A stretch of DNA of 64,000 nt, taken from NCBI GenBank assembly GCA_964493785.1, contig CAZBPM010000002.1:162712-226711 (forward strand). Direction: 5' to 3'. Numbering within the stretch: the first letter of the stretch is position 1; each line of letters opens with the position of its first letter. The notes below the pieces were generated by a model. It saw only the letters and a program-made list of their open reading frames with translations. It searched no databases and had not been told where the DNA came from. Source of the DNA: an uncultured Hyphomicrobium sp. (GTDB lineage Bacteria; Pseudomonadota; Alphaproteobacteria; Rhizobiales; Hyphomicrobiaceae). Of this stretch, positions 13,388-53,541 are shown piece by piece. The translations under genes and the position numbers were made by a program.

Positions 13388-14158
13388 TCATCGCGCCAGA
13401 TAATCGTTCCTGCCGACTCGCAAGAGAGACGCTTCGAGCCGCTTGGAGTCGCGGCGGATCTCCTCGACGGTTTCGAACGTGCACGCGACGTGACTTGCCG
13501 CGGCGGCCTCCGCCATCTTGGCCTTGCCGGCGATGATCGCCTCTGCAATCGCAACATGCTGCGTCAGAAGCTTTTCGCGCACACCCGGCCGCTGATAGAG
13601 CTGCTGGCGGCTGTAGAAGATGTTGCTCCGCAACAACTCGCTCAACGCCCGCATGATATGCAGCAAAACGGCATTATGGGCGGCTTCATAGATGGAAAGG
13701 TGAAAATCGACGTCGGCTTGGGATTCTTGCGTCGGATCTTCCAGCTCGTGCGCCGTTTTTATCTGGTTAATCGCGGCGCGGATCGCGTTCCGATCTAGCT
13801 CAGAGGCGCGCACCGCAGCATAGCGTGCCGCTTGAGCGTCCATCGACTGGCGAAATTCGAAGTAGTCGGCGGTCGCCTGCGGATTGTCCTCCAACAGCGA
13901 CGCCAGCGGTTTCAGCAATGGCGAGAGGAACTGGGCGATGAAGGTACCCGCGCGCGTCGTGCGCAGCAATCCTCGCTCGGCCAGCATGTCGATCGCTTCC
14001 CGAAGTGATGGCCGCGATACGTCCAACTTCTCAGCAAGCTCGCGCTCCGGTGTGAGCCGTTCGCCCGGCCGCAGCACGCCCTGCAGGATCAGTTTTTCCA
14101 GGTGATCGGCGATAGCTTCGGCGACTTTTTGAGGGCGGATGCGCTCAGTCATTTTCAC
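13388..14158 (-). CDS. lldR: GntR/FadR-family regulator, LldR/PdhR-like
   Basis: Winged HTH RLTPERELAEKLDVSRPSLREAIDMLAERGLL plus an FCD-type helical domain. It is divergent from the lactate permease gene. Confidence 0.85.
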   Translation of the reverse strand: MKMTERIRPQKVAEAIADHLEKLILQGVLRPGERLTPERELAEKLDVSRPSLREAIDMLAERGLLRTTRAGTFIAQFLSPLLKPLASLLEDNPQATADYFEFRQSMDAQAARYAAVRASELDRNAIRAAINQIKTAHELEDPTQESQADVDFHLSIYEAAHNAVLLHIMRALSELLRSNIFYSRQQLYQRPGVREKLLTQHVAIAEAIIAGKAKMAEAAAASHVACTFETVEEIRRDSKRLEASLLRVGRNDYLAR

Positions 14159-14334
14159 CCCTTTACGCCGTCGGCCGCGCCTGACACGATTTGTCGCAAT
14201 GGTGTATTGAACGACCCAACGCTGTCAATAGAAACGATCTATTGCACCATCGAGCGCGCTTGGTCTAATTATATTACCAACGGAACGAGCGGCGCGTGAC
14301 GCGACTAGCTCGTCGATTACGGGGTGGGAATGTC

Positions 14335-16005
14335 GTGTGGTCGCAAACATATGATCCCTTCGGGAACATGCTTCTCTCGGCGGGGGCTGCAGCTGTGCCT
14401 GTTGTGGTGCTGCTCGGCGCCATCGCTATCTTTGAAATCAAGGCGCACATCGCTGCTCTTCTAGGGCTCGCTGCTGCACTGCTCATTGCGACGCTCGGAT
14501 TTGGAATGCCGCCGGAAATGGCGGGGCGTGCCGCAGCATATGGCGCAGCCTTCGGCCTGTTGCCGATAGGCTGGATCGTCATCAACGTGATCTTTCTCTA
14601 TCAGCTCACCAACGAGAACGGTGAGTTCACGGTGCTGCAGCAGAGCATCCGAAACATCAGCGACGACAGGCGCCTGCAGCTTCTCTTCATCGCCTTCTCG
14701 CTGGGCGCATTTTTCGAGGGCGCTGCCGGCTTCGGCACTCCGGTGGCCGTCACTGCCGCAATGCTCATCGGCCTTGGCTTCTCGCCGCTCGCCGCGTCGG
14801 GTTTGTCGCTCATTGCCAACACCGCGCCCGTTGCCTTCGGAGCGTTGGGGTCGCCCGTCATTGCGCTGGCCGCGGTCACCGGGCTCGATCTTCACGAGCT
14901 CAGCGGAATGATCGGCCGCCAGCTTCCGTTCTTCTCGGTCATCGTTCCCTTCTGGCTCATCTGGGCCTTCGTCGGCTTCCGCCGCATGATCGAGGTCTGG
15001 CCGCCCGTGCTTGTCGCGGGCGTTTCTTTTGCTGTGCCGCAATACCTCGTCTCGAACTTTCACGGGCCATGGCTCGTCGACATCATTGCAGCGGTCTGCT
15101 CGATGATTTGCTTGGCGCTGTTCCTGCGGGTCTGGCAGCCTAAATCGCCGATGACGAGCGCTGACGCCAGCGCCACTGAAGCCCCTCCCCTCGCCGGCGC
15201 ATCGAGCGCGGGCGCAGCAGCTGCTCCGGCGGCATCGGCGTCGCGCTGGACCGTGCTCCGCGCCTGGATGCCCTGGCTCCTGCTCAGCGTCTTCGTGTTT
15301 GCCTGGGGAACGCCGCAGGGCAAAGCGTATCTCGACAGCCTCTGGATCTACAAATATCCGGTCGCAGGCCTGCACGAGCTGGTGCAGAAAGTGCCGCCGG
15401 TCGTCGCCTCGCCGCACGCCGAATCCGCCATCTACACGTTCAACGCACTTTCGGCGACCGGGACCGGCATTTTGCTCGCAGGCCTGCTGTCCGGCTTCCT
15501 GCTGGGATACGGCCCCATCAGCATCGCGCGCATCTATATGCGCAGCCTCTATCAGGTGCGCTACTCGTTGCTGACTATCGCAGGCATGCTTGCGATCGGT
15601 TTCGTCACCCGATACGCCGGCACCGACGCAACGCTTGGGCTGGCGCTCGCCAATACGGGCTGGTTCTACCCGTTCTTCGGCACGCTGATCGGCTGGCTCG
15701 GCGTCGCGCTCACCGGCTCCGATACGGCCTCAAATGTTCTTTTCGGCGGGCTGCAGAAAGTCAGCGCCGAGCAGCTCGGCATCAATCCCACGCTGATGGC
15801 GGCTGCCAACAGCTCCGGCGGCGTCATGGGCAAGATGATCGACGCTCAGAGCATCGTCGTCGCTTCGACCGCCACCCGCTGGTACGGGCACGAAGGAACG
15901 ATATTGCGCTTCGTATTCTTCCATAGTGTGGCGTTGGCCATGCTCGTCGGCCTGCTGGTGATGGGGCAGGCATACTATTGGCCCTTCAATCTGCTCGTTC
16001 ATTGA
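14335..16005 (+). CDS. lldP: L-lactate permease (LctP family)
   Basis: Collinear with my recollection of E. coli LldP: WSQTYDP, FFEGAAGFGTPVAVTAAMLIGLGF, NTAPVAFGALG. I prefer the GTG at 14335 just before WSQTYDP. The track start at 14296 is an alternative. Confidence 0.9.
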   Translation: MWSQTYDPFGNMLLSAGAAAVPVVVLLGAIAIFEIKAHIAALLGLAAALLIATLGFGMPPEMAGRAAAYGAAFGLLPIGWIVINVIFLYQLTNENGEFTVLQQSIRNISDDRRLQLLFIAFSLGAFFEGAAGFGTPVAVTAAMLIGLGFSPLAASGLSLIANTAPVAFGALGSPVIALAAVTGLDLHELSGMIGRQLPFFSVIVPFWLIWAFVGFRRMIEVWPPVLVAGVSFAVPQYLVSNFHGPWLVDIIAAVCSMICLALFLRVWQPKSPMTSADASATEAPPLAGASSAGAAAAPAASASRWTVLRAWMPWLLLSVFVFAWGTPQGKAYLDSLWIYKYPVAGLHELVQKVPPVVASPHAESAIYTFNALSATGTGILLAGLLSGFLLGYGPISIARIYMRSLYQVRYSLLTIAGMLAIGFVTRYAGTDATLGLALANTGWFYPFFGTLIGWLGVALTGSDTASNVLFGGLQKVSAEQLGINPTLMAAANSSGGVMGKMIDAQSIVVASTATRWYGHEGTILRFVFFHSVALAMLVGLLVMGQAYYWPFNLLVH

Positions 16006-16032: not shown

Positions 16033-16830
16033 ATGTCCGCATCCGAAACAGTCCGTAGCGTCGCTAACCCGCCTCCGCGGGTCGCGTTGTTCGTGACTTG
16101 TCTCGTCGACCTCTTTCGTCCCAGCGTCGGGTTTGCCGCCGTTAAGCTCCTTGAGGATGCCGGGTGCATCGTCGAGGTCCCGCCTCGGCAAGTCTGCTGT
16201 GGGCAGCCCGCCTACAACAGCGGCGATACCGATGCAGCACGGCGCATCGCCAAGCAGGTGATCGAGACGTTCGACGGCTTCGACTACGTGGTCGGGCCAT
16301 CCGGATCGTGCATGGCGACGCTTCGCAAGGATTATCCCGAGATGCTGCAGGGCGATCCAACTTGGAGCCGGCGCGCAACCTCGCTCGCCCAGCGCAGCTA
16401 CGAGCTGATGTCCTTCCTCACCGATGTCCGTGGCAGCCGCATCGAAGGCGTGTCCTACGCCGGCAAAGTCACGTACCATGACAGCTGCTCGGGACTAAGA
16501 TCGCTCGGCATCAAATCCCAGCCGCGCCAGCTGCTGGCTGACATCGATGGCCTCGAGCTATCCGAGCTGCAGGACCCGGAGACATGCTGCGGATTCGGTG
16601 GGACTTTCTGCGTCAAGTATCCGGAGATCTCCATCAAGATGGTGTCCGACAAGGTGGGCAATATCGAGATGAGCGGCGCCGACACCCTGCTCGGCGGCGA
16701 TCTTGGATGCCTCCTAAATATTGCCGGACGGCTACGCCGGGTCGGTAACGAAACCCGCGTGTTTCATGCTGCGGAGGTCCTTGCGGGCATGGCCGATGGT
16801 CCCGGCATCGGCGAGGCAGAGAAGCCCTGA
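16033..16830 (+). CDS. lutA: Lactate utilization protein A (CCG-domain Fe-S oxidoreductase)
   Basis: VALFVTCLVDLFRPSVG ... VCCGQP ... ETCCGFGGTF cysteine-rich CCG motifs. It is first in a lutABC-order cluster. Confidence 0.9.
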   Translation: MSASETVRSVANPPPRVALFVTCLVDLFRPSVGFAAVKLLEDAGCIVEVPPRQVCCGQPAYNSGDTDAARRIAKQVIETFDGFDYVVGPSGSCMATLRKDYPEMLQGDPTWSRRATSLAQRSYELMSFLTDVRGSRIEGVSYAGKVTYHDSCSGLRSLGIKSQPRQLLADIDGLELSELQDPETCCGFGGTFCVKYPEISIKMVSDKVGNIEMSGADTLLGGDLGCLLNIAGRLRRVGNETRVFHAAEVLAGMADGPGIGEAEKP

Positions 16831-18251
16831 TGGGAGCGCAAACACAAAGCTTTCATGAACGTGCTTCGCAGGCGCTGACTGACCAGAACCTGCAACGCTC
16901 GATTGGCGCCCTGAAGGGTGGCTTCGTAGCAGCGCGGGCTCGTGCCGTCGCCGCGGTGCCGGAGTTCGAGGCGATGCGCGAAGCCGGTCGCGTGATCAAG
17001 GATCATACGCTCGCCAACCTCGATTTTTACCTGACGCGCTACGAAGCCGAAGTCGTCCGACAGGGCGGCCAAGTGCACTGGGCGTCGGACGCAGAAGAGG
17101 CCTGCCGAATTATACGGGACATCTGCGCGCGCGTCGGCGCAAAAACGGTCACCAAGGGCAAGTCGATGGTCTCCGAGGAGATCGGCCTCAACGAAGCCCT
17201 CGAAGCCGACGGCTTGGAGGTCCTTGAGACGGACGCCGGCGAGTACATCGTGCAGCTCGCCAAGGAGTTGCCGAGCCACATCGTCATGCCGACGATCCAC
17301 AAGACCACCAGCCAGATCGCCTCACTCTTCCACGAGAAGCACCGCCGCTATGGATTCACCGAGCGCGTGGAGGACCCCGCCGAACTCATCGACCAAGTGC
17401 GCTCGGTGCTGCGCGAAAAGTTTTTCACAGCCGACGTCGGCATAACGGGCGCCAACTTCCTCGTCGCCGAGACCGGGTCAAACGTCATCGTCACCAACGA
17501 GGGCAACGGCGATCTCACGTCAACGCTGGCGCGCGTCCACATTGTCACGGCGGGCATCGAGAAAGTTGTGCCTACGCTGAACGACACTGCGGTGTTGTTG
17601 CGCCTGTTGGCACGCAGCGCACTCGGCCTCGACGTGACCAGCTACGTCACCTATTCCACAGGCCCGCGCAGGCCAGCCGACCTCGACGGTCCGGAAGAGT
17701 ATCACGTCGTCCTCGTCGACAACGGCCGCACGAAGATGCTCGAGGGCGCCTACCGGCCGATGCTCCGTTGCATCCGGTGCGGGGCCTGCATGAACCACTG
17801 CCCCGTCTATCTGTCCGTAGGAGGCCACGCCTACGGCGGGGTATATCCTGGGCCGATGGGCGCCGTTCTCACACCGATTATTTCCGGACACGAGAAGGCT
17901 CAGGAGCTGCCGCACGCGTGCACCCTCAACGGACGTTGCCAGCAGGTGTGCCCGGTGAAAATCCCGCTGCCGGAGATGCTCCGACGGCTGCGTCATGATC
18001 AATGGGAAGCCGGCTTTATCCGCGGCAAGGCGCGTTGGGGCATCGATGCCTGGGCGTGGCTCGCAACCCGCCCGACGCTTTACCACAACGTCACACGGTT
18101 CCTGGTTGCGGTCGGCGGCATGCTCGGCCGCTCGCGCGGTCGCTTCAACCGGCTGCCTCTGGCGTCCGGGTGGACCCTCGGGCGCGACATGCCATCCCCG
18201 CAAGGGACGACGTTCCATGCTGCGTGGGCCAAAGCAAAAAGAAAAAGGTAA
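16830..18251 (+). CDS. lutB: Lactate utilization protein B (4Fe-4S protein)
   Basis: Two ferredoxin motifs, CIRCGACMNHCP and CTLNGRCQQVCP. TGATG overlap with lutA. Confidence 0.9.
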   Translation: MGAQTQSFHERASQALTDQNLQRSIGALKGGFVAARARAVAAVPEFEAMREAGRVIKDHTLANLDFYLTRYEAEVVRQGGQVHWASDAEEACRIIRDICARVGAKTVTKGKSMVSEEIGLNEALEADGLEVLETDAGEYIVQLAKELPSHIVMPTIHKTTSQIASLFHEKHRRYGFTERVEDPAELIDQVRSVLREKFFTADVGITGANFLVAETGSNVIVTNEGNGDLTSTLARVHIVTAGIEKVVPTLNDTAVLLRLLARSALGLDVTSYVTYSTGPRRPADLDGPEEYHVVLVDNGRTKMLEGAYRPMLRCIRCGACMNHCPVYLSVGGHAYGGVYPGPMGAVLTPIISGHEKAQELPHACTLNGRCQQVCPVKIPLPEMLRRLRHDQWEAGFIRGKARWGIDAWAWLATRPTLYHNVTRFLVAVGGMLGRSRGRFNRLPLASGWTLGRDMPSPQGTTFHAAWAKAKRKR

Positions 18252-18888
18252 TCCGTTGGCACGCGAGGAGATCTTGAACCGTATCCGGTCGGCGCTCGGC
18301 GATCGCGAACGAACCGATAGCGAGGCCGCGCAACTCGATGCGCGAATGCGCGCCCGCCCCGTCGGGCCGATTGTGGATTTCGACGCCGATGTCCTGATCC
18401 AGTTCTTCGCCAAGACCGCAGCAAACAACTTCACCGTCGAGCGCATTGCCTCGCTACAGATGCTTGTATCTGCGGTGCGCGCTCTGCTGCCTGACGGAGA
18501 AGTACCCGACATCAGCATCGCTAGAACGCTGGATCACGTCGGCTGGCCCTCCGATTGGAACATAAATCGCGGCGCCGGACGTATCGTCGAGCGCGTGAGC
18601 GTTACGCAGGCGCTTGCCGGTATTGCCGAAACCGGCAGTATCGTGATGGCATCCGGCGCCGACAGTCCGACCAGCCTCAATTTCCTGCCTGACCTCCACG
18701 TCGTCGTATTGCGCGCGGACGATGTCGTTGCTCATCCCGAGGATGTCTGGCCCCGGATGCAGATGGAAAACTGGCCCCGCGCCGTCAATGTCATCTCAGG
18801 ACCATCGCGCACGGCCGACGTCGGCGGCATCATCGTGCGCCCAGCGCACGGACCCAAGCGCGTACATCTCATTGTCGTCGATTCCTGA
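18217..18888 (+). CDS. lutC: Lactate utilization protein C
   Basis: YkgG/LutC-like strings ILNRIRSALG ... GIAETGSIVM ... HVVVL. The start is trimmed to ATG 18217, because the track start at 17995 would run deep into lutB. Confidence 0.8.
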   Translation: MLRGPKQKEKGNPLAREEILNRIRSALGDRERTDSEAAQLDARMRARPVGPIVDFDADVLIQFFAKTAANNFTVERIASLQMLVSAVRALLPDGEVPDISIARTLDHVGWPSDWNINRGAGRIVERVSVTQALAGIAETGSIVMASGADSPTSLNFLPDLHVVVLRADDVVAHPEDVWPRMQMENWPRAVNVISGPSRTADVGGIIVRPAHGPKRVHLIVVDS

Positions 18889-19007: not shown

Positions 19008-20354
19008 TCAGAAGAAGATGATAGCGCCGACAATGCCCATATTGAAGTTCTCGAACTTCTGCTTTCCGTCAACACCGCTGTCGGCGTAGGTGGCTTCGAG
19101 CTGGTGCATGCGCCACTTCGCCCAGAGCTGCATCGAGGCGGCATCGATGTCCTGGACGAGGCCGATACCGATGCGGGTAGCCTCGGTGCCGGTGAGACTG
19201 ACGGTCGTGTCAGCAGCACTGGAGCAAGCGCCACTGATGTTTCCACCGACACCAAAGAAGTCGGCGCACAAGCTGGCGCTTCCCGCCGGATAGGCCGAGT
19301 GCATGTCGCGGTTCTGACCGTACTCGCCGTAGACGTGCGTGTTGCCGAGCGAGACCCACTTCTGCGTCAGGCCGGCCTTGATGTAGTAGTGGTAGTCATC
19401 CTGAGTTCCGGGCAGCGAGGCGCCTTCCTCACCATAGAGGGCGTGGACCCAAAGTCCGGACGGGTTGTGCTTGATGAAGCCGCCGACCTGCGCGTACGTC
19501 GCATCGCCGAAAGCTGGATCCGACGCTGCCGTGTAAGCGCCGCTCAAGGCTAGCTGGAAGTCTTGCCACTGGCCTTTCCAGCGCGCCGACACGTCCCAGA
19601 AGTCGTCTTCGCCCCACGATGCCGACAGCACGAGCCCGCCGAAGGTCGGCGTGTCGTAGCGAATGGCATTGCGCCGATCGCCGGCGCAATCGCCGCCAAT
19701 ACCGAGCTGTGTCGACTGGCAGAAGAACGCAAGATCCCACCACGTCGCGCTCGAAAGGCCTGCCGCACCAGAGTTTCCGCCCTTTGGCCTCAGGCGGAAG
19801 GAAGCGCCGTCGAAGGTTACGGTGTTTGCGGCAATCAGCGTGCCCGAAAGATCGGAGTCGAGCGCCGCATTATCTGAAGCGTGCGACTGCTTACCGACGG
19901 TCACGCGTCCGAGGGTGTCGCTCTGCAGGTACCAGTTGGAGTGAATGAGGTCGATGCCGGTGCCGACATTCGAATTGTTCTGATCGACCAGCAGCGCGTC
20001 GGTCGCATCGAGCGACACCGTGAGCTGGTAGCCTGCCTTCCATCCTGGGCTGATGATCGCCTCGCCGGCGAACGTGAAGCGAGTCGCAAGATCAGGAGCC
20101 TGACCGTTCACGTACACGTTGCTCTCGCTGCCATCATTCCAGTACATCACCTGCTGGCTGAGAAAGCCGGAGATCGAGAACGAGACCTTGCGGTTTCCCT
20201 TGCGCACAGTCGTAGCTTCGAGCTCGGCAATTCTCTCTTCAAGATCGGCGCAGCAGTCGCCCCCGAGATCTGCGGCCGAGGCCTTGTCACCTTGGATCGC
20301 GCCTGCTGCCATCATGACGAGCGCACAGCAAAGCGTTCGTTTTCCCCCACGCAT
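19008..20354 (-). CDS. Outer-membrane porin (alphaproteobacterial porin family)
   Basis: Signal peptide, the N-terminal CCADLEERIAELEATTVRKGNRKV motif, alternating beta-strand pattern, and a C-terminal ...GAIIFF. Confidence 0.85.
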   Translation of the reverse strand: MRGGKRTLCCALVMMAAGAIQGDKASAADLGGDCCADLEERIAELEATTVRKGNRKVSFSISGFLSQQVMYWNDGSESNVYVNGQAPDLATRFTFAGEAIISPGWKAGYQLTVSLDATDALLVDQNNSNVGTGIDLIHSNWYLQSDTLGRVTVGKQSHASDNAALDSDLSGTLIAANTVTFDGASFRLRPKGGNSGAAGLSSATWWDLAFFCQSTQLGIGGDCAGDRRNAIRYDTPTFGGLVLSASWGEDDFWDVSARWKGQWQDFQLALSGAYTAASDPAFGDATYAQVGGFIKHNPSGLWVHALYGEEGASLPGTQDDYHYYIKAGLTQKWVSLGNTHVYGEYGQNRDMHSAYPAGSASLCADFFGVGGNISGACSSAADTTVSLTGTEATRIGIGLVQDIDAASMQLWAKWRMHQLEATYADSGVDGKQKFENFNMGIVGAIIFF

Positions 20355-20845
20355 TACGCTTACTCCTACAAATACTGTCGCGACTTGACGGGTCGCGTAC
20401 GCTTTTGCGTAACCCGACGCACACGGCCGGAACGCTTACGCAGAACAAGGAAGGCAAGGCGTGTGCCAAGTTTGCGCGCACGGACGCAGCGACGAGCACG
20501 ATGAGGATTTCGTGCGTGTTGAGCGCAGCAGGCTTGTTTGCGGAAACGTCCATTCCATCGAGGATAATCGCAGCGAGCGATGATCAACGCCGGCCGGCGT
20601 CAGCTGAACTTCGCGCTCGGGCTGTTGCAGGAGAGTAACGCGAAGGGGTCATCGCTGCAGGCGCAGCTGTCGAGCGAGCGTGACCGCTGTGACAGATCCG
20701 GCGGTGATGTGTAACGCGATGCCGTCGGCGGACACGCAAAGACGCGGGCGTGAGATCGCTCGCCGGCAATCTCCTTGGCAAAGACGCCAACAAACTCGGG
20801 CGATTGCGACGCCGCCCTTCCCGATTCCGCGCCGCGTTCGGTTGT

Positions 20846-20860
20846 TGGCATGGTTTATGC
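20846..20860 (+). promoter_or_regulatory. Sigma-54 (-24/-12) type promoter
   Basis: TGGCATGGTTTATGC compared with consensus TGGCAC-N5-TTGC. The GG and GC dinucleotides are at the exact consensus spacing. It lies 82 nt upstream of the Rieske ATG, and a sigma-54 activator is encoded in the window. Confidence 0.5.
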
Positions 20861-20941
20861 GTTTTCCCCATTTGCGGATGCTCGCGTCGCGTATCTCGAT
20901 GCGGGCACCGCAAACAAAAAGAGGTTGTTGGGGGAGTGAGG

Positions 20942-21562
20942 ATGCCAAAGGAGACAACGCCCGGTAGCAGTGCCGGCGTGCAGGGGGAATGCGCTTGCCA
21001 AGTGGGGCGTCGGGCAATCGTGAAGGGGCTGGCTCTCGCCGGTTGCGCGGTAGCCTCAGACATTCTGGTTGGATCGTCGTCGTTTGCTCAGTCGGGCCGC
21101 AGTCAACGTCCCGAGCCAGGTGATCGCTTGGTCTTCATGGCCGGCGACAACGAGGGCAAAACCGTCACTCCGGCGGATGTGAAACTCGGCGAGGCTCCTA
21201 TCCTCGTCTACCCTATGGACCCCAAGACGCAGACCATCATTCAGTCGCGCGCCAGCCTGCTGCTGCTCGTGCGGTTGAACGAGGACGAAATCGGGCCATC
21301 CACCAAGCCGCACTCTGCCGACGGGATAGTCGCCTACTCGGCGGTCTGTACCCACAACGGCTGCCCGATCACGAGCATCCACGAGAACAAGCACTGGATC
21401 GTCTGCAACTGTCACGGCTCAACGTTTGATGTCGGAAACGACGGAGCAGTGGCGAATGGGCCAGCCACGCGCAGACTAGCCATGCTGCCGGTCGCCATCA
21501 CCGATGGCGCCCTGCTCGTTGCGGGGAAACTGGACGGTCCGATCGGGCCGCCGGACGTGTGA
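20942..21562 (+). CDS. TAT-exported Rieske [2Fe-2S] protein (bc1/arsenite-oxidase-like, with disulfide cysteines)
   Basis: CTHNGCP ... CNCHGSTF Rieske boxes. Twin-arginine leader QVGRRAIVKGLALAGCAVA. Start at ATG 20942, preceded by GGGGAGTGAGG. Confidence 0.85.
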   Translation: MPKETTPGSSAGVQGECACQVGRRAIVKGLALAGCAVASDILVGSSSFAQSGRSQRPEPGDRLVFMAGDNEGKTVTPADVKLGEAPILVYPMDPKTQTIIQSRASLLLLVRLNEDEIGPSTKPHSADGIVAYSAVCTHNGCPITSIHENKHWIVCNCHGSTFDVGNDGAVANGPATRRLAMLPVAITDGALLVAGKLDGPIGPPDV

Positions 21563-21616
21563 GCGGCAGAACAACTGCTACTCGCAAAACCAATCCAAAA
21601 ACTCTGGGAGGACACG

Positions 21617-23341
21617 ATGCAACTACGACTACCCGTCGCCGCGCTCGCGTTGACGGTCGCAACGTCTCTGTTCGCGGCCGATTACAAGCCCGTCACAGAC
21701 GCGCGACTCGCTAATCCTGAGCCTGAGAACTGGCTGCTGGCCAAGGGGAACTACGAAGGCTGGAGCTATACGCCGCTCGACCAGATCAACACGTCGAACG
21801 TCGCTAAGCTCAAGCCTGTATGGTCGGCGGCCACCGGCGTTGCCTCGGGTCACGAGGCGCCCGCCATCATCAACGGCGACTACATGTTCGTCTCGACGCC
21901 GCGCAATCAGGTGCTGGCGTTCGACGCGAAAACAGGCCGCTCCCTGTGGAAGTACCAGCGCGAGATGCCGGAAGGCTTCAGCGCGCTGCACATGACGAAC
22001 CGCGGCGTCGCGCTCTGGGGTGATAAGGTCTATGTTGCCAGCATCGACTGCATGCTGACGGCTCTCGACCCCAAAACAGGTACGAAGATCTGGGAAGCGC
22101 AAGTCTGCGACTGGCAGAAAGAAAGCGCCTACATCACCTCGGCGCCGCTCGCAGTGAAAGGCAAAATCATCGTCGGTCCATCGGGCGGCGAGTTCGGCGT
22201 GCGTGGCTTCATCAAGGCCTTCGATGCTGAAACCGGCAAGCTGGCCTGGACGCGCTACTCGGTTCCCGCACCGGGCGAGCCGGGCTCGGAGACTTGGCCG
22301 CAGGAAGGTCGCTGGAAGGACGCCTGGAAGAACGGTGGCGGCACCATGTGGATGCCCGGAAACTATGACTCGAAAAATGACGTCATCTACTGGGGCGTCG
22401 GCAACGGCGCACCGTGGCTGGGCGATCAGCGTCCGGGAGACAACCTCTATCTTGCATCCGTTGTTTCACTCAACCCGGACAACGGCGATATCGTCGGCCA
22501 CTTCCAGTATCATTGGAACGACTCCTGGGATTGGGCGGGCATGAATGCTCCGACGCTCGTCGAATTCAATCGCGACGGCAAGAAGGTGCCTGGTCTCATC
22601 AGCGCCCAGCGCAACGGCCGCCTCTACTGGCTCGATCGCGACGAGAAGGGCAAGATCAGCTACGACAAGTCCGAAGGCTATGTGAAGAACAACGTCTTCA
22701 AGAGCATCGACCCCAAGACGGGCCGCCCGACCTACAACGAAGATGCGAAGCCCGGCACCGACAAGACTGCCACTTACTGCCCGAGCCTTTGGGGCGGCAA
22801 GGACTGGCCGTACGAAGCCTACAACCCGAAGACCGGCATGCTGTACGTGCCGTTCAACGACAATCACTGCATGACGTTGACCGGTATGATCCAGCCTGTT
22901 CTGCCGGGCCAGTGGTCGGCGGGTGTCGACATCAAGAAGCTCGACCTCAAGGTTGACGACAAGTTCCCCTTCATCGGTGGCATCCAGGCATGGAGCGTCG
23001 ATGGCGGCAAGGAGGAGTGGCGTCAGACCTATCCGCACTCCTGGAACTTCGGCTCGATCCTCACGACGGCCGGCGGACTCGTCTTCATGGGTGGCACGAA
23101 CGATCGCATGTTCCGCGCCTATGACGGTAAGAGCGGCAAGCTGCTGTGGGAGTTCCCGACGCCGTCTGGCATCATCTCTCCGCCGAGCAGCTTCTCGATC
23201 GACGGCAAGCAGTACATCGCCGTTGTTTCTGGCTGGGGTGTGGACGCCCAGTGGATCCAGGGCAAGATGCACGATCAGGCCGGCTGGGAGAAAGCCGTTC
23301 CTGAAGGCGGATCGGTTTGGGTTTTCGCACTCGGTGAATGA
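21617..23341 (+). CDS. PQQ-dependent dehydrogenase, methanol/ethanol family, lacking the vicinal Cys-Cys
   Basis: Signal peptide and eight-bladed propeller strings (GHEAPAIINGDYMFV, WGVGNGAPW, SWDWAG, RNGRLYWLDR). At the position where XoxF in this window has ACCDTVHRG, this protein has SALHMTNRG. Confidence 0.9.
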   Translation: MQLRLPVAALALTVATSLFAADYKPVTDARLANPEPENWLLAKGNYEGWSYTPLDQINTSNVAKLKPVWSAATGVASGHEAPAIINGDYMFVSTPRNQVLAFDAKTGRSLWKYQREMPEGFSALHMTNRGVALWGDKVYVASIDCMLTALDPKTGTKIWEAQVCDWQKESAYITSAPLAVKGKIIVGPSGGEFGVRGFIKAFDAETGKLAWTRYSVPAPGEPGSETWPQEGRWKDAWKNGGGTMWMPGNYDSKNDVIYWGVGNGAPWLGDQRPGDNLYLASVVSLNPDNGDIVGHFQYHWNDSWDWAGMNAPTLVEFNRDGKKVPGLISAQRNGRLYWLDRDEKGKISYDKSEGYVKNNVFKSIDPKTGRPTYNEDAKPGTDKTATYCPSLWGGKDWPYEAYNPKTGMLYVPFNDNHCMTLTGMIQPVLPGQWSAGVDIKKLDLKVDDKFPFIGGIQAWSVDGGKEEWRQTYPHSWNFGSILTTAGGLVFMGGTNDRMFRAYDGKSGKLLWEFPTPSGIISPPSSFSIDGKQYIAVVSGWGVDAQWIQGKMHDQAGWEKAVPEGGSVWVFALGE

Positions 23342-23440
23342 TCTTTGAAAGACCCCGACCCGCGCATCCCACAACGCGGGTCGGGGATTTGAGCAGGCAG
23401 GCAGGCGGGCAAACTTCTCGGGAGCGAAGGGAGAACAGCA

Positions 23441-23893
23441 ATGCTCACCATCAGTGTAAACGGCAAGGACTATAAGTTCGATGGCGATCCCAATACGCCG
23501 CTGCTTTGGTTCGTGCGCGACGAGCTTGGGCTGACAGGTACAAAATATGGTTGCGGCGCGGGACTCTGCGGCGCCTGCACCGTACATCTCGACGGTACGG
23601 CCGTGCGCGGCTGCATGACGTCGGTCAGCGACGTGGCAGGCAAGGCCGTGACGACGATCGAGGGCCTCAGCGCCGACGGAAACCACCCCGTGCAGAAGGC
23701 ATGGCGCGACCTGAACGTACCGCAATGCGGATTCTGCCAAGCCGGACAGATCATGCAGGCGGCCTCGCTACTCTCGAAGAACCGCGCACCCAGCGACGCC
23801 GAGATCGTCGAGGACATGACGGGCAACATCTGCAGATGCGGATGCTATCAGCGCATCCATGCGGCCGTGCGCGTAGCGGCGGGAGGCGTTTGA
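23441..23893 (+). CDS. (2Fe-2S)-binding small subunit of a molybdenum hydroxylase (IorA-like)
   Basis: [12 protein letters not shown] and [10 protein letters not shown] ... CRCGCY double [2Fe-2S] motifs. 150 aa. Confidence 0.9.
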
Positions 23894-23895
23894 TC

Positions 23896-26268
23896 ATGCT
23901 GCATTACTTCGACAAGCAGAACCAGGCCACTGCGGAGCCGCAGGTTCACACCATCATCGAGAACGTCAGCCGCCGCTCCTTCTTAGGTGGCGTGCTGAAG
24001 ACTTCCGGCGTCGCGCTCGCGATGCAGATCATTCCCGGAGCCGCCAACGCTTTCGACGCCTATCCGACCGGTGGCGCCGGAATGCCTCATGGGGTCGTCA
24101 GCGATCCGCATGTCTTTGTCGCCATCGATCCCGATGGCAAGGTGACGATCGTCGCGCACCGCTCCGAGATGGGAACCGGCGCACGGACCAGCCTTCCGAT
24201 GGTCGTCGCCGACGAAATGGAAGCCGATTGGCAGCGCGTGCACGTCATCCAGGCGCCTGGTGACGAACCCCGCTACGGCAACCAGGACACCGACGGGTCG
24301 CGCAGCGTCCGCCATTTCATTCAGCCCATGCGCGAGTGCGGCGCTGCAATGCGCTTCATGCTCGAGGCTGCAGCTGCTGTACAATGGGGTATCGATCGCT
24401 CCCTCTGCAAGGCCAGCAACCATGCGGTCGTCCAGCTCACGAAGGGCGCCGATGGCAAACTCGTCGAGACCGACAAGAAGCTCAGATATGGCGAGCTGGC
24501 GACGATCGCCATGTCGATGCCAGCGCCGCGGCGTGATCAGCTGGCATTCAAGCAGCCCGGCGAATTCCGTTACATGGGCAAGGGCACGACGCAGATCGTC
24601 GACCTGCACGACATCACAGTCGGCAAGGCGGTCTACGGTGCCGACGTGCGCCTGCCGGGGATGAAGTACGCGGTTGTCGCCCGTCCGCCCGTCGTCGGCG
24701 GCACGGTCAAGAAGCTCGACGCGACGGAAGCGAAGAATGTCCGCGGCGTCGAGGCCGTGCATCGATTCGGCGGGTGGAAGGCGCCGGCCAAGTTCGCTCC
24801 ACTCGGCGGAGTAGCCGTCATCGCCAATTCAACCTACGCCGCGTTGCAAGGCCGCGACAAGCTCGTGATCGAATGGGAGGATGGCCCCAACGCTGTCTAC
24901 AACACCCCGGCCTATCGCGAGGCGATGATCGCCGCGGCAGCCAAGCCTGGAAAGGTCATTCGCAACCAGGGCGACGCGGACAAAGCGTTTGCCGGCGCGG
25001 CAGAGGTCTTCTCGGCCGTCTATGCGCAGGACCATGTCGCTCAGGCATCGATGGAGCCGCCGGTTGCGCTTGCCCGCATCGTCGACGGAAAGATCGAGGT
25101 ATGGGCGCCGGTTCAGAGCCCCTACGGTACGCGCGAGGACATCGCCAAGACGATGAACGTGCCGATCGAGAACGTGACCGTGCACGTCACGCTGCTCGGT
25201 GGCGGCTTTGGTCGCAAGTCCAAGTGCGATTTCGCGATCGAGGCGGTGCTGCTTTCCAAAGAGCTTGGTGGCGTTCCCGTGCGCGTGCAGTGGACCCGCG
25301 AGGACGACCTCCAGCACGCCTTCTATCACACCGCTTCGGTTGAGCGGATCGAGGCGGCACTGGACAAATCCGGAAAGGTCATCGGCTGGCGCCACCGCAC
25401 CGTGGCTCCCTCCATCATCTCGACCTTCGCCGAGGACACCGGCTACCAGTTCAAGATCGAGTACGGAATGGGCTTGGTCGACATGCCGTTCGACATTGCC
25501 AACATCCGTTGCGAAAACGGCCAGGCGTTCGCGCACACGCGCATCGGCTGGTTCCGCTCGGTGTCGAACATCCCGCGTGCGTTCGCGGTGCAGTCGTTCG
25601 TGGCCGAACTCGCACACAAGCTCGGCCGCGATCCTAAAGACCTGCTGCTCGAGCTGATCGGTCCTGATCGCGTCATCGACATCAAGACAGCGGGGATGCC
25701 GGAGGACTTCTGGAACTACGGCGAGCCGTATCCCGAGTTCCCCATCGACACGGGGCGCTTGAAAAAGGTGCTCAATGTCGCTGCGGACAAAGCGGGCTGG
25801 GGCAAGAAGCTCCCGGCACGCCAAGGGCTCGGCATTGCCGTCCACCGCTCGTTCGTCAGCTACGTGGCAACGGCCGTGCGCGTTGCCATCGACGACGACG
25901 GCACCATCCGCGTTCCGGAAGTAACGACCGCGATCGATTGCGGCTTCTACATCAATCCGGAGCGCATCCGCTCTCAGGTTGAAGGTGCAGCCGTGATGGG
26001 CATGTCGACCGCAATGTACAGCGGCATCACCTTCAAGGATGGCCGCGTCGAGCAGTCCAACTTCGGGGACTTCTCCGTCGCGCGCATGGAGAACTTCCCC
26101 CAGAAGGTCGATGTCCACATCATCGAGCCCACATCTCCGACGCACCACGCGACAGGCGTCGGCGAGCCAGGTGTGCCTCCGTTCGCTCCGGCCCTTTGCA
26201 ATGCCATCTTTGCCGCCACCGGCCAGCGGCTGCGCAGCTTGCCGACCGGGGAGAAGATCAAGGCATAG
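23896..26268 (+). CDS. Molybdopterin-binding large subunit of an aldehyde oxidase/xanthine dehydrogenase-family enzyme (IorB-like), TAT signal
   Basis: Start at ATG 23896, 2 nt after the small-subunit stop. Twin-arginine VSRRSFLGGVLKTSGVALA. The C-terminal GVGEPGVPPFAPALCNAI motif is typical of this family. Confidence 0.9.
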   Translation: MLHYFDKQNQATAEPQVHTIIENVSRRSFLGGVLKTSGVALAMQIIPGAANAFDAYPTGGAGMPHGVVSDPHVFVAIDPDGKVTIVAHRSEMGTGARTSLPMVVADEMEADWQRVHVIQAPGDEPRYGNQDTDGSRSVRHFIQPMRECGAAMRFMLEAAAAVQWGIDRSLCKASNHAVVQLTKGADGKLVETDKKLRYGELATIAMSMPAPRRDQLAFKQPGEFRYMGKGTTQIVDLHDITVGKAVYGADVRLPGMKYAVVARPPVVGGTVKKLDATEAKNVRGVEAVHRFGGWKAPAKFAPLGGVAVIANSTYAALQGRDKLVIEWEDGPNAVYNTPAYREAMIAAAAKPGKVIRNQGDADKAFAGAAEVFSAVYAQDHVAQASMEPPVALARIVDGKIEVWAPVQSPYGTREDIAKTMNVPIENVTVHVTLLGGGFGRKSKCDFAIEAVLLSKELGGVPVRVQWTREDDLQHAFYHTASVERIEAALDKSGKVIGWRHRTVAPSIISTFAEDTGYQFKIEYGMGLVDMPFDIANIRCENGQAFAHTRIGWFRSVSNIPRAFAVQSFVAELAHKLGRDPKDLLLELIGPDRVIDIKTAGMPEDFWNYGEPYPEFPIDTGRLKKVLNVAADKAGWGKKLPARQGLGIAVHRSFVSYVATAVRVAIDDDGTIRVPEVTTAIDCGFYINPERIRSQVEGAAVMGMSTAMYSGITFKDGRVEQSNFGDFSVARMENFPQKVDVHIIEPTSPTHHATGVGEPGVPPFAPALCNAIFAATGQRLRSLPTGEKIKA

Positions 26269-26291
26269 CAGAGCCCTCTCCGCCAAAAATG

Positions 26292-26318
26292 GAATGCCGC
26301 TGCTGAAGCGGCATTCCC
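26292..26318 (+). terminator. Stem-loop after the molybdoenzyme operon
   Basis: Perfect 10-bp arms ggaatgccgc / gcggcattcc with a 7-nt loop, 24 nt after the stop codon. No strong U-tract. Confidence 0.5.
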
Positions 26319-26422
26319 AATAACCGCGAGAATTCGTGGATTCCGCCTTCGCGCTGCACACCGCACGCACGAGGGATGGATGTGCACGGCCATTTGCAGC
26401 TTGCTTTTAAGGACGACCGACG

Positions 26423-29086
<2,664 letters not shown>

Positions 29087-29111
29087 CACGCGCAACCTGG
29101 ACCATGCAGCA

Positions 29112-30410
29112 ATGAGCACGATCGAAGTCAGGGTTCCCGACATCGGCAGCTTCGCCGACATTCCAGTCATTGAGGTGCTCGTGAAGCCGGGCGACAGCGT
29201 GCGCGCGGAGGATCCGCTGGTCACGCTCGAGTCCGACAAGGCGACGATGGAGGTTCCCGCCCCCTCGTCGGGACGCGTCGCTGAGATAAACGTCGGCGTC
29301 GGAGACAAAGTCAGCCAAGGCAGCCTCATCCTCAAGCTGGAGCCGGAGGCCGCGGGCGCCAACACGCCAATCAAGGCAGCTGAGGCGCAAGCACCAACCC
29401 CTCGTTCAGTATCATCCCCGGCTCCTGTGACCTCCGACGCACAGGGCGGGCCGACCGCATCAAATCCTCCTCTCGGCAACGGACATGCGGGGCCATTCCC
29501 GGCACCGGCAGACTTCGGCGGCATTCACGCGAGCCCATCCGTGCGTCGTCTGGCGCGCGAACTCGACGTGGATGCATCAAAGCTCAAGGGTACCGGCGAC
29601 AAAGGGCGCATCACCAAAGAAGACGTAAAGCATGCACTGGCCGGTCAAACCGGGACGGGCGGCAATCAAGGATACGGCATTCCGGCCATCCCAACGCAGG
29701 ACTTCGCGAAATTCGGTCCGATCAGCACCAAGCCGCTATCGCGGCTGAAGCGGCTGTCCGGTCCCCATCTGCACCGCGCTTGGCTCAACATTCCTCACGT
29801 CACCCACACCGACGAAGCGGACATCTCCGAGCTTGAAAGCTATCGCAAGGAGCTCGACGCCGCGGCCAAAGACAAGGGCTACCGCGTCACGTTGCTGTCG
29901 TTCCTGCTGATGGCAGCGGTGACTGCGCTTAAGCAGCATCCAGAGTTCAACGCTTCGCTATCACCTGCGGGCGACGAGCTGATCTTGAAGCACTACTTCA
30001 ATATTGGCGTTGCTGTGGATACGCCCGACGGGCTCGTCGTACCCGTCATCAAGGACGTGGACCGCAAGCGCATCATTGAACTCAGCCAGGAGCTGGCCAG
30101 CGTGTCGCAGAAGATGCGAGAGGGCAAGATCGCGCCGACAGACATACAAGGTGCGACCTTCTCGATATCTTCTCTCGGCGGCATCGGCGGCACCAATTTT
30201 ACGCCCATCGTCAACGCTCCGGAGGTGGCAATCCTGGGGGTCGTGCGCGCCCGCGTGACACCCGTTTGGAATGGCGAAGCCTTCGCGCCGCGCCTCATGC
30301 TGCCGATCTGCCTCTCCTACGACCACCGTGTCATCGACGGCGCACTTGCCGCGCGATTTACCCGGCGCCTGGCCGAAGTTCTCGGCGATGTCCGCCAACT
30401 CGTTCTCTGA
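29112..30410 (+). CDS. aceF: Dihydrolipoyllysine-residue acetyltransferase (E2), single lipoyl domain
   Basis: Lipoyl motif LVTLESDKATMEVPA, an Ala/Pro linker, E3-binding ASPSVRRLARELDVD, and catalytic LSYDHRVIDGA. Confidence 0.9.
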   Translation: MSTIEVRVPDIGSFADIPVIEVLVKPGDSVRAEDPLVTLESDKATMEVPAPSSGRVAEINVGVGDKVSQGSLILKLEPEAAGANTPIKAAEAQAPTPRSVSSPAPVTSDAQGGPTASNPPLGNGHAGPFPAPADFGGIHASPSVRRLARELDVDASKLKGTGDKGRITKEDVKHALAGQTGTGGNQGYGIPAIPTQDFAKFGPISTKPLSRLKRLSGPHLHRAWLNIPHVTHTDEADISELESYRKELDAAAKDKGYRVTLLSFLLMAAVTALKQHPEFNASLSPAGDELILKHYFNIGVAVDTPDGLVVPVIKDVDRKRIIELSQELASVSQKMREGKIAPTDIQGATFSISSLGGIGGTNFTPIVNAPEVAILGVVRARVTPVWNGEAFAPRLMLPICLSYDHRVIDGALAARFTRRLAEVLGDVRQLVL

Positions 30411-30428
30411 TCAGAAGCCATCTCTGCA

Positions 30429-51720: not shown

Positions 51721-51723
51721 GGC

Positions 51724-53523: not shown

Positions 53524-53541
53524 GAACGGACTGCAGCGTGA

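Follow-up and report, generated by a model that had tools for sequence, protein, structure and literature searches.

Among the closest described counterparts of the locus studied here are the type I quinoprotein ethanol systems, ExaA-ExaB-ExaC of Pseudomonas aeruginosa and PedE/PedH-PedF-PedI of P. putida, in which the small partner of the PQQ dehydrogenase is a cytochrome c550. Azurin is the natural acceptor of a type II quinohaemoprotein alcohol dehydrogenase (PMC8348568). A Rieske protein serves a different periplasmic enzyme, arsenite oxidase AioAB, whose electrons go to azurin or cytochrome c. We found no publication on a pairing of a Rieske protein with a PQQ dehydrogenase. Such a pair is encoded in the 64-kb stretch of DNA analysed here (the window). 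A Rieske protein in place of cytochrome c points to an undescribed swap of electron acceptor in a well-known enzyme family.

Four genes on the plus strand encode the Rieske protein, the PQQ dehydrogenase, a 2Fe-2S subunit and a molybdenum subunit, separated by gaps of exactly 54, 99 and 2 nt; the coordinates agree with the co-directional arrangement given in an earlier note on this DNA. The first gene (20942–21562) encodes a stand-alone Rieske [2Fe-2S] protein of 206 amino acids (Pfam Rieske). It carries bc/Aio-type cluster and disulfide motifs, CTHNGC and CNCHGS, with residues C136, H138, C141, C155, C157 and H158, and a twin-arginine motif, GRRAIVKG, at residues 22–29, in line with the TAT export and cluster motifs already noted for it. 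Its top sequence match in the PDB is the Thermus Rieske protein 1NYK (E = 3e-33, residues 58–202). The AF2 model has a pLDDT >90 over residues 55–206 with an unstructured leader, and 1NYK is also the closest fold by Foldseek (target-normalised TM-score 0.88, rmsd 1.8 Å). No helical membrane anchor was predicted by AF2, and in the family alignment most members have A-x-A sites; we propose that the protein is soluble or loosely tethered. The protein scores 45.6 bits with TIGR02694 (cutoff 95.65) and is thus not an AioB.

The second gene (21617–23341, plus strand) encodes a Ca-type PQQ dehydrogenase of 574 amino acids (Pfam PQQ; TIGR03075, 515 bits with a cutoff of 480) with a Sec-type leader, MQLRLPVAALALTVATSLFA before ADYKP. 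Both features bear out its earlier description as a signal-peptide enzyme of the PQQ alcohol dehydrogenase family. The top solved match is 1KV9 (E = 3.6e-94). Aligned with 1KV9, the enzyme keeps its PQQ and Ca ligands (E192, N263, D305, W245) but has A123-L124 where the vicinal Cys-Cys would stand; the ligands are likewise kept in all family members examined. Among the best 120 homologs, ALH.TNRG-type motifs lacking Cys-Cys were present wherever the motif was read, and Cys-Cys was missing from all clade members read at this position. Where paralogs encoded in the same DNA retain Cys-Cys, they have a haem domain (locus L087) or an adjoining cytochrome c (L089). The XoxF-like enzyme of the window also keeps it. 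Taken as support for the reading below, these motifs suggest that the loss of Cys-Cys tracks the type of acceptor.

The pairing of the two genes is strictly conserved. Starting from the Rieske protein, the dehydrogenase gene was found 3′ of the Rieske gene in all 49 evaluable loci of alpha-, beta- and gammaproteobacteria, at a spacing of 61–295 nt as measured in tblastn match coordinates. These loci belong to Hyphomicrobium, Methyloligella, Pseudoxanthomonas, Dokdonella, Tahibacter, Steroidobacter, Nevskia, Hydrocarboniphaga, Zoogloea, Azoarcus and Methyloversatilis. For distant dehydrogenases (approximately 60% identity, found from the dehydrogenase side) a Rieske gene was adjacent in six of six cases, on either side, so that the gene order flips in this clade. 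Between alpha- and gammaproteobacteria the Rieske protein is the faster-diverging partner (approximately 50% identity, compared with approximately 80% for the dehydrogenase). A natural fusion of the two proteins was not seen in the top 150 of 1.84 billion representative proteins, a point against the reading proposed below. As judged from this synteny, the conserved core is a two-gene unit of Rieske protein and PQQ dehydrogenase, and the Rieske protein is the best candidate for the acceptor of the dehydrogenase, as had been suggested before. The four genes do not form the single module previously assumed, which is composite: the IorAB pair occurs in only six of 52 loci, all of them in Hyphomicrobium and its close relatives, and is separated from the dehydrogenase gene by a hairpin that nearly all loci share.

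No coding-like ORF with a CxxCH motif was found anywhere in the 64-kb window, which extends the previously reported absence of such a protein from the gene cluster. A dedicated cytochrome c in orthologous clusters, which the earlier note had named as evidence against its reading, is essentially missing as well; an unfiltered CxxCH scan gave coding-like candidates in about two of 57 loci. Azurin (TIGR02695, 160 bits with a cutoff of 105) is encoded 3′ of the dehydrogenase in 12 loci of Xanthomonadales/Lysobacterales. The term "cytochrome-free" cannot be claimed, because the Rieske protein needs an onward acceptor, azurin accompanies the pair in 12 loci and only 64 kb of the genome is visible.

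The operon is preceded by a predicted sigma-54 promoter of the form TGGCAT-N5-ATGC (TGGCAT-GGTTT-ATGC, 20846–20860, plus strand). An alignment of eight Hyphomicrobium upstream regions showed that the GG and GC of this −24/−12 element are invariant, and in the majority of 57 related loci the first gene of the operon is preceded by TGGCAC-N5-TTGC; by conservation, the promoter proposed earlier is real. In the same alignment CTGTGACA (20687–20694, plus strand) and TGTAACG (20710–20716) are both invariant. Located approximately 150 bp before the promoter, they likely form the activator binding site. A gene for a sigma-54 enhancer-binding activator (11356–13338, minus strand; Pfam Sigma54_activat, 6.8e-61, AAA_lid_14 and HTH_8) starts with an ATG at 13338 behind the Shine-Dalgarno sequence GGGAGGG, and 35 of 52 loci encode an activator homolog close to the pair. 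Directly 3′ of the dehydrogenase gene and before IorA lies a perfect 12-bp hairpin (23353–23386, plus strand; −30.4 kcal/mol). Almost all related loci have a strong hairpin behind the stop codon of the dehydrogenase gene, several with T-runs; the hairpin of the window probably acts as an attenuator or stabiliser and marks the end of an ancestral two-gene unit. The earlier note had overlooked this hairpin. The closing hairpin that it did report is present at 26291–26317 (plus strand; −26.1 kcal/mol, z = −4.6), with a stem of 11 bp instead of 10 bp and with a T-run on the minus strand only, none on the plus strand.

The third and fourth genes encode an IorA-type subunit of 150 amino acids with two [2Fe-2S] clusters and no signal peptide (23441–23893, plus strand; Pfam Fer2_2 and Fer2) and an IorB-type molybdopterin subunit of 790 amino acids (23896–26268, plus strand; Pfam MoCoBD_1/2). 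Their top PDB matches are the small and the large aldehyde dehydrogenase subunit of 8GY3 (8GY3_B, E = 7e-52; 8GY3_C, E = 8e-80, full length). IorB has a twin-arginine motif, SRRSFLGG, at residue 25, and an SRR motif recurs in 77 of its 120 closest homologs; each of the seven N-termini read contains it. The domains and the leader thus match the 2Fe-2S/molybdopterin pair described before. Orthologs at 67–69% identity are located in GntR-LctP-IorAB operons with no Rieske or PQQ gene, hence IorAB does not require the Rieske protein. LctP co-occurs with IorAB in loci L007–L011 and L090–L092, but the match is imperfect, since L014 has LctP and lacks IorAB. In 37 of 52 loci an aldehyde dehydrogenase gene is found that is an AldA ortholog (NF007497, 763 bits with a cutoff of 500; E. 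coli lactaldehyde dehydrogenase 2HG2, E = 4e-194) and not of the ExaC type (337 bits, cutoff 900). IorAB is a lineage-specific add-on that takes the place of the cytoplasmic AldA-type lactaldehyde dehydrogenase found in most other lineages.

Upstream of the operon, the minus strand encodes an XdhC-type molybdenum-cofactor insertion chaperone (10309–11298; Pfam XdhC_CoxI and XdhC_C), likely the maturation factor for IorB, which also adjoins LctP-IorAB in L091 and L092, and a GntR/FCD regulator of the PdhR/LldR type (13388–14158; Pfam GntR and FCD), whose top NCBIfam matches, PdhR and LldR, are both under their cutoffs. On the plus strand follow the L-lactate permease gene lctP (14296–16005; Pfam Lactate_perm, 1e-149) and the lactate-utilisation genes lutABC (16033–18888), with LutA at 16033–16830 (Pfam CCG), LutB at 16830–18251 (LUD_dom, Fer4 and LutB_C) and LutC at approximately 18217–18888, the last called from its ORF and synteny with locus L001. 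LutAB is encoded near the pair in 27–29 loci. An outer-membrane porin gene (19008–20354, minus strand; Pfam Porin_4) is divergent from the Rieske gene and keeps this position across the Hyphomicrobium loci. Downstream lies a pyruvate dehydrogenase complex (26423–31859, plus strand), comprising E1 (26423–29086; Pfam PDH_E1_M, 2e-111), E2 (29112–30410) and E3 (30429–31859), the latter two again called from ORFs and synteny with L001.

Reading gene neighbourhood and motifs together, we consider it probable that the locus encodes a sigma-54-induced periplasmic alcohol-oxidation route in which the Rieske protein is the dedicated one-electron acceptor of a PQQ dehydrogenase lacking Cys-Cys. The dehydrogenase would oxidise a small alcohol, with 1,2-propanediol as the likeliest substrate and lactaldehyde as the product, and the reduced PQQ of the enzyme would be reoxidised by the Rieske protein in two one-electron steps. 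The Rieske protein would thereby fill the role of cytochrome c550/cL, or of the haem domain of type II alcohol dehydrogenases, and would pass electrons to a general periplasmic carrier, which would be azurin where the operon encodes it. Behind the pair, this Hyphomicrobium lineage encodes a periplasmic molybdenum aldehyde oxidoreductase of the IorAB type, which would replace the cytoplasmic AldA type. LctP would then import the lactate formed in the periplasm, LutABC would oxidise it to pyruvate, and the neighbouring pyruvate dehydrogenase complex would take over from there. The alcohol-to-aldehyde-to-acid logic proposed earlier fits these neighbouring genes. PQQ alcohol dehydrogenases are broad in specificity, and the substrate is inferred from neighbouring genes only.

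Hyphomicrobium is better known for growth on C1 and C2 compounds, which counts against a 1,2-propanediol-type route. The same architecture might instead serve ethanol oxidation via acetaldehyde to acetate, or ethylene glycol oxidation via glycolaldehyde to glycolate, with the lactate genes as unrelated neighbours. The closest characterised enzymes, PedE/PedH and ExaA, are ethanol dehydrogenases; AldA oxidises glycolaldehyde too, and the LctP family includes glycolate permeases. However, LutABC and a PdhR/LldR-type regulator repeatedly accompany the pair in alpha-, beta- and gammaproteobacteria, the pyruvate dehydrogenase complex comes directly next in the Hyphomicrobium and Methyloligella loci, and the aldehyde dehydrogenase is of the AldA type; a different substrate is possible, but we regard it as the less likely choice. 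Strict adjacency would fit a stable heterodimer just as well as a dedicated carrier, and the usually fixed gene order speaks for the heterodimer. The Rieske protein could be a tightly bound redox subunit of a quino-iron-sulfur enzyme that itself reduces azurin or cytochrome c. There is precedent in AioB, a TAT-exported Rieske subunit: TIGR02694 is named "arsenate reductase (azurin) small subunit", and 8ED4 is described as a complex with cytochrome c552. The downstream azurin of the 12 loci would agree with this. On the other hand, with one protein exported by TAT and the other by Sec, any complex must assemble in the periplasm; the faster divergence of the Rieske protein is usual for carriers, and both the flipped order in the distant clade and the lack of fusions among the top 150 proteins speak against a fixed heterodimer, which we find unlikely.

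Doubtful, too, is the version of the earlier note, in which the PQQ dehydrogenase and IorAB share the Rieske protein as acceptor and the whole chain from alcohol to acid runs without cytochrome. IorAB of the same subfamily (54–61% IorB identity) is indeed found near pairs in four arrangements (the window clade, L088, L089 and L093), and no cytochrome c subunit is encoded here, unlike in the closest solved homolog, 8GY3, a Gluconobacter aldehyde dehydrogenase of three subunits, one of them a cytochrome c. However, IorAB is absent from 43 of 49 pairs, the conserved hairpin separates it from the pair, and the LctP-linked orthologs have neither Rieske protein nor cytochrome c, so that this subfamily uses some acceptor encoded elsewhere. 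A Rieske protein shared in this way would still need its own downstream acceptor. Some bacteria are known to have alternative Rieske isoforms, and the nearest relatives by sequence and fold are the bc-complex Rieske protein of Thermus and actinobacterial QcrA; the protein might therefore be an alternative iron-sulfur subunit of a bc-type complex, or have an unrelated role and merely be co-regulated with the dehydrogenase. We give this very little credence. No locus has an adjoining cytochrome b or c1 gene, the leader is predicted to be unstructured and not a long transmembrane helix, and scores are far under the cutoffs (32 vs 97 bits for proteobacterial bc1, 103 vs 275 for QcrA). The perfect adjacency to the dehydrogenase over three proteobacterial classes also argues against such a role.

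Compared with known systems, IorA and IorB are closest to the small and large subunits of the membrane-bound aldehyde dehydrogenase of acetic acid bacteria (8GY3), and share with it and with the IorAB isoquinoline 1-oxidoreductase a twin-arginine leader on the large subunit and two 2Fe-2S clusters in the small one. The cytochrome c subunit gene of 8GY3 is absent here and from the LctP-linked orthologs. The respiratory Rieske protein of Thermus thermophilus (1NYK/3FOU), the closest solved protein to that of the window, belongs to a bc complex, whereas the Rieske gene of the window has no cytochrome b or c gene beside it, and the second cluster box is followed by GSTF instead of GGVY. As in AioAB, a TAT-exported periplasmic Rieske protein with cluster motifs and disulfide would serve a non-bc oxidoreductase, and the folds are related (Foldseek E approximately 1e-7), but the partner is a PQQ propeller and not a molybdoenzyme of the DMSO reductase family. 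Among solved structures, the dehydrogenase is closest in sequence to the type II enzyme ADH IIB of P. putida HK5 (1KV9) and shares with it the azurin link, the azurin gene being directly 3′ of the dehydrogenase in the 12 loci; a separate Rieske protein takes the place of the fused haem c domain of that enzyme, and Cys-Cys is lost. With the type I systems the locus shares a periplasmic eight-bladed PQQ dehydrogenase of the methanol/ethanol family (6ZCV/6ZCW, approximately 1e-93; 1FLG), a retained Ca-type active site (E192, N263, D305) and a dehydrogenase gene located beside genes for a small dedicated redox protein and an aldehyde dehydrogenase. It differs from them in having A123-L124 at the Cys-Cys position, a TAT-exported Rieske [2Fe-2S] partner, control by sigma-54 and an enhancer-binding activator, and an aldehyde dehydrogenase of the AldA type or, in the window, IorAB.

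The ORF listing and domain scans bore out four co-directional genes on the plus strand with gaps of 54, 99 and 2 nt. They encode a Rieske protein of 206 amino acids (20942-21562), a PQQ dehydrogenase of 574 amino acids (21617-23341), a subunit of 150 amino acids with two [2Fe-2S] clusters (IorA, 23441-23893) and a molybdopterin subunit of 790 amino acids (IorB, 23896-26268). The surrounding block comprises genes for XdhC (10309-11298), a sigma-54 activator (11356-13338) and a PdhR/LldR-like GntR regulator (13388-14158), all three on the minus strand, followed by a lactate permease (14296-16005), LutABC (16033-18888), a divergent porin on the minus strand (19008-20354) and, beyond the four genes, pyruvate dehydrogenase E1/E2/E3 (26423-31859). 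The nearest kin of the encoded proteins are found in Hyphomicrobium, and the Rieske protein is 87% identical to that of Hyphomicrobium sp. 1Nfss2.1. The window also encodes a protein of 2545 amino acids that combines subtilase, P-domain, cadherin and RTX-repeat domains (listed coordinates 32402-40039 and 50407-54156, both on the minus strand). An ABC/HlyD pair for type I secretion and a HlyC-like acyltransferase are encoded close by; this protein has no bearing on the present finding.

The four genes are preceded by a sigma-54 element, TGGCAT-N5-ATGC, at 20846-20860, with GG at -24 and GC at -12. Both dinucleotides and the Shine-Dalgarno sequence before the ATG at 20942 are invariant over eight aligned Hyphomicrobium upstream regions, and so are two motifs located further upstream, CTGTGACA at 20687 and TGTAACG at 20710. 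A near-consensus TGGCAC-N5-TTGC is found 5' of the first operon gene in gamma- and betaproteobacterial lineages. The sigma-54 promoter, which the earlier note had proposed, is thus well supported by elements conserved in Hyphomicrobium and in more distant relatives and by the presence of the activator gene. A consensus scan of 20300-26500 revealed no sigma-70 promoter sites, and no Rfam RNA family matched within 10000-32000.

The hairpin expected to close the gene group was found at 26291-26317 (11-bp stem, -26.1 kcal/mol, z = -4.6); it has no T-run on the plus strand and one on the minus strand only. A second hairpin, not among the features described previously, is located directly 3' of the dehydrogenase stop codon (23353-23386, perfect 12 bp, -30.4 kcal/mol) and is followed by ATTTGAG; IorAB sits 3' of it. 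Nearly all related loci (L001-L058) have a strong GC-rich hairpin at this place, several of them with T-runs, and it is kept also at loci where azurin or IorA is the following gene. This structure may set the ratio of the Rieske-dehydrogenase pair to the downstream genes.

The Rieske protein carries the twin-arginine motif GRRAIVKG, in line with the predicted TAT export, together with the expected cluster boxes CTHNGC and CNCHGS, which are invariant across 23 family members, both disulfide cysteines included. Among solved structures, that of the Thermus Rieske protein is closest to it (1NYK, E = 3e-33). An AF2 model with pLDDT above 90 over residues 55-206 was matched by Foldseek to 1NYK with an E-value of 1e-15, a target-normalised TM-score of 0.88 and an rmsd of 1.8 Å. 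Ser160 is kept, and Phe162 replaces the usual Tyr after the second cluster box; along with both disulfide cysteines, these residues suggest that the potential might be moderately high. Many leaders of the family contain CxC or CxCxC directly before the twin arginines, as seen in the window (20942-21010, ECACQVGRR), in the family alignment, where gamma lineages have CACACAG...GRR, and in two loci of a distant clade, L093 and L095 (SCGCKLGRR in the latter). In addition, Hyphomicrobium leaders have a lipobox-like L-A-G-C or V-S-G-C (LAGC at residues 31-34, 21032-21043, in the window), which gammaproteobacterial members do not have. In the Hyphomicrobium lineage the protein may be lipid-anchored and not freely soluble.

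The dehydrogenase has a Sec-type leader and an eight-bladed PQQ propeller domain (Pfam PQQ, 1.6e-73) and scored 515 bits against TIGR03075, the PQQ-dependent dehydrogenases of the methanol/ethanol family (curated cutoff 480). The best solved match was the type II quinohaemoprotein alcohol dehydrogenase 1KV9 (3.6e-94). Alignment to 1KV9 and PedE/PedH showed that E192, N263, D305 and W245 match the ligand, catalytic and stacking residues, and the motif WDWAG indicates a putative active site of the Ca type. At the position of the vicinal Cys-Cys stand A123-L124. Wherever the motif was read, in the best 120 homologs as well as in the distant clade (L087, L088, L094 and L095), it was of the ALH.TNRG type and had no Cys-Cys. 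Some distant Rieske-linked dehydrogenases (listed for L088, L089, L093 and L095) have WDWD, with the lanthanide-type Asp, in place of the WDWA of the window protein, so the partnership with a Rieske protein spans both metal types. In Methyloligella sp. GL2 (L057, 10549-14112), one Rieske gene is followed by two tandem Cys-Cys-less dehydrogenases with 72% and 76% identity to that of the window.

For both proteins, assignments to known families of another function had to be weighed. The next fold matches of the Rieske model after 1NYK were actinobacterial QcrA and AioB, the latter being the small arsenite oxidase subunit. Scores were below the cutoffs of the respective families, with 32 bits for TIGR01416 (proteobacterial bc1, cutoff 97), 103 bits for NF050121 (QcrA, cutoff 275) and 45.6 bits for TIGR02694 (AioB, cutoff 95.65). 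The neighbours are also the wrong ones: no cytochrome b or c gene adjoins the Rieske gene in the loci inspected, and the ORF listing shows no DMSO-reductase-family gene (AioA) beside it in the window. An identity as AioB or as a bc1 subunit was rejected on these grounds. Furthermore, AF2 predicts the first approximately 50 residues to be unstructured and without a helix, a prediction that speaks against an anchor of the bc1 kind. An 'empty' propeller that does not hold PQQ was considered for the dehydrogenase and likewise rejected, since TIGR04528 gave 337 bits (cutoff 650) and none of the PQQ and Ca ligands is lost.

Scanning one genome per species with the Rieske family alignment yielded 52 true family loci (L007-L058). 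They belong to Alphaproteobacteria (Hyphomicrobium, Methyloligella), Gammaproteobacteria (Pseudoxanthomonas, Dokdonella, Tahibacter, Steroidobacter, Nevskia, Hydrocarboniphaga, Rhodanobacter) and Betaproteobacteria (Zoogloea, Azoarcus, Methyloversatilis). Wherever the downstream sequence was sufficient (49/49 loci), a dehydrogenase with 68-94% identity followed the Rieske gene directly, at a spacing of 61-295 nt in match coordinates. Sampling from the dehydrogenase side gave the same picture, since all six distant dehydrogenases with about 60% identity have a Rieske gene adjacent, either upstream or downstream. It is very probable that the disulfide-less PQQ dehydrogenase has the Rieske protein as its dedicated redox partner. 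The Rieske family is large, with at least 134 representatives (E <= 1e-30) among sequences clustered at 50% identity. No Rieske-PQQ fusion occurred among the best 150 matches (123-328 amino acids) of the Rieske profile to 1.84 billion representatives.

The commonest operon order is a presumed outer-membrane protein of 286 amino acids, an aldehyde dehydrogenase, the Rieske protein and the PQQ dehydrogenase. Near the pair, 35 of the 52 loci encode a sigma-54 activator and 27-29 encode LutAB. The 286-amino-acid protein, which has a signal peptide (L005, 7616-8476; homologs in 37/52 loci), is encoded at the start of the gamma- and betaproteobacterial operons and gave no match in Pfam, NCBIfam or PDB. 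It is probably an outer-membrane beta-barrel and likely a substrate channel, the counterpart of the porin in the window. In the clade with about 60% identity, a conserved protein of 120-162 amino acids, absent from the window, is encoded 3' of the dehydrogenase (L088, 9900-10262; L089, 9782-10219; L093, 7793-8281; L095, 7829-8278). Three of these four proteins have a signal peptide and no Pfam match is on record for them, the one from L088 having also been scanned directly. A third component is a possible role.

The earlier note suggested that the four genes form a cytochrome-free module wired through the Rieske protein. Across the 64-kb window there was indeed no coding-like ORF with a CxxCH motif, but 64 kb is too short a stretch to establish the term 'cytochrome-free'. 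An unfiltered CxxCH scan of 57 loci, extending 6 kb to the 5' side and 8.5 kb to the 3' side of the pair, returned 16 ORFs, mostly with a non-coding third-position composition, and coding-like candidates only in L048 and L026. A GC3-filtered scan missed the positive control, the cytochrome c of L089; the unfiltered scan recovers it, and the conclusion was unchanged. A dedicated cytochrome c in orthologous clusters, which had been named as the observation that would speak against the Rieske-wired chain, was thus not found, with coding-like candidates in about two of the 57 loci. The sole recurring extra redox protein at the loci of the pair is azurin (TIGR02695, 160 bits, cutoff 105), whose gene lies directly 3' of the dehydrogenase gene in 12 Xanthomonadales/Lysobacterales loci. 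Electrons would then pass from PQQ to the Rieske protein and on to azurin or another carrier.

The four-gene module turned out to be a lineage-specific composite. IorAB is present in only six of the 52 loci, all from Hyphomicrobium or near relatives, and the sequence available for these six gave no AldA-type gene. In H. nitrativorans NL23 and L014, pyruvate dehydrogenase E1 comes directly after the dehydrogenase. IorA and IorB best match the small and large subunits of Gluconobacter aldehyde dehydrogenase (8GY3_B, 7e-52; 8GY3_C, 8e-80), in agreement with Pfam domains for two 2Fe-2S clusters in the small and MoCoBD in the large subunit, and the twin-arginine leader attributed to the latter was confirmed as SRRSFLGG. 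Neither the window nor the surroundings of the orthologs in L091 and L092 contain a CxxCH gene that could provide a cytochrome c third subunit. Two CxxCH ORFs in L090 (3030-3356 and 10361-11344) have no cytochrome c domain in Pfam, and one of them is an ADH_N gene. The orthologs of IorB in L090, L091 and L092 (67-69% identity) are encoded in operons of the order GntR-LctP-IorA-IorB, close to genes for XdhC and pyruvate dehydrogenase, and these loci contain no Rieske, PQQ or cytochrome c gene. Clearly, the Rieske protein is not obligatory for IorAB. The interpretation given in the earlier note is upheld in part, with the Rieske-to-IorAB link a hypothetical element of it. The operon structure suggests that this subfamily, for which no report was found in the literature, is a periplasmic molybdoenzyme whose product would be imported by LctP. 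Three arrangements (L088, L089 and L093) place IorAB of the same subfamily close to distant pairs of Rieske and dehydrogenase genes as well, and a pathway link between both enzymes therefore recurs.

The aldehyde dehydrogenase of the operon, found at 37 of the 52 loci, is orthologous to AldA (NF007497, 763 bits, cutoff 500) and matches E. coli lactaldehyde dehydrogenase 2HG2 with E = 4e-194, the next structure following at 1e-124. Together with LutABC, the PdhR/LldR-type regulator, LctP and the pyruvate dehydrogenase complex alongside, this indicates a route that would lead from 1,2-propanediol via lactaldehyde, lactate and pyruvate to acetyl-CoA. Ethylene glycol or ethanol is a possible substrate instead; the AldA ortholog and the neighbouring genes point to 1,2-propanediol as the putative starting substrate. 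LctP was not found in the available sequence of loci with cytoplasmic aldehyde oxidation by AldA, whereas it adjoins IorAB at loci with periplasmic oxidation, the sole exception being L014. From this context, namely that it replaces AldA and is tied to LctP, we infer that IorAB would have an aldehyde as its substrate.

PQQ alcohol and methanol dehydrogenases are textbook periplasmic enzymes, generally regarded as passing their electrons to dedicated c-type cytochromes or a fused haem domain. Paralogs in the same DNA stretches that keep Cys-Cys obey this classical rule. In L087 the paralog is a quinohaemoprotein with a fused haem domain, and in L089 it adjoins the cytochrome c gene. The window itself encodes an XoxF-type enzyme with PRACCDTVHRG and a lanthanide-type DYD motif (60726-62657), flanked by genes for a LuxR-type regulator on the 5' side (58935-60053) and a MoxJ-like binding protein on the 3' side (62680-63999), all on the plus strand; by keeping the vicinal Cys-Cys it provides an internal contrast to the Cys-Cys-less dehydrogenase. 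The role of the vicinal disulfide has been debated for decades. Anthony and co-workers reportedly found that methanol dehydrogenase needs the ring to pass electrons to cytochrome cL, and PQQ glucose dehydrogenases that use other acceptors lack it. Loss of the ring in the present enzymes fits a change of acceptor. On balance we lean slightly towards the view that a widespread quinoprotein clade has swapped cytochrome c for a dedicated TAT-exported Rieske protein, and that this was coupled to the loss of the Cys-Cys ring.

No curated family was found for the pair, and full-text literature searches revealed no publication on it, the sole paper with both terms being unrelated. If the proposed partnership is true, it would be the first case of an Fe-S protein as acceptor for a PQQ enzyme, adding a new class of physiological acceptors for quinoproteins, and a natural experiment on the purpose of the Cys-Cys ring. 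Disulfide loss with consistent gain of a Rieske gene ties both features into one testable hypothesis, of relevance to specialists in quinoproteins and respiratory chains. It would also explain a large group of genes now labelled only 'Rieske (2Fe-2S) protein' or 'alcohol dehydrogenase (cytochrome c)', the latter label being probably wrong for the Rieske-linked clade. Besides, a complete route from a diol to pyruvate is proposed, as well as a function for the IorAB subfamily tied to lactate permease. In the simplest picture, the separate Rieske protein would stand in for the haem domain or cytochrome c550. Type II quinohaemoprotein alcohol dehydrogenase has azurin as its natural acceptor (PMC8348568), and the proposed chain from PQQ via the Rieske protein to azurin would have a parallel in arsenite oxidase.
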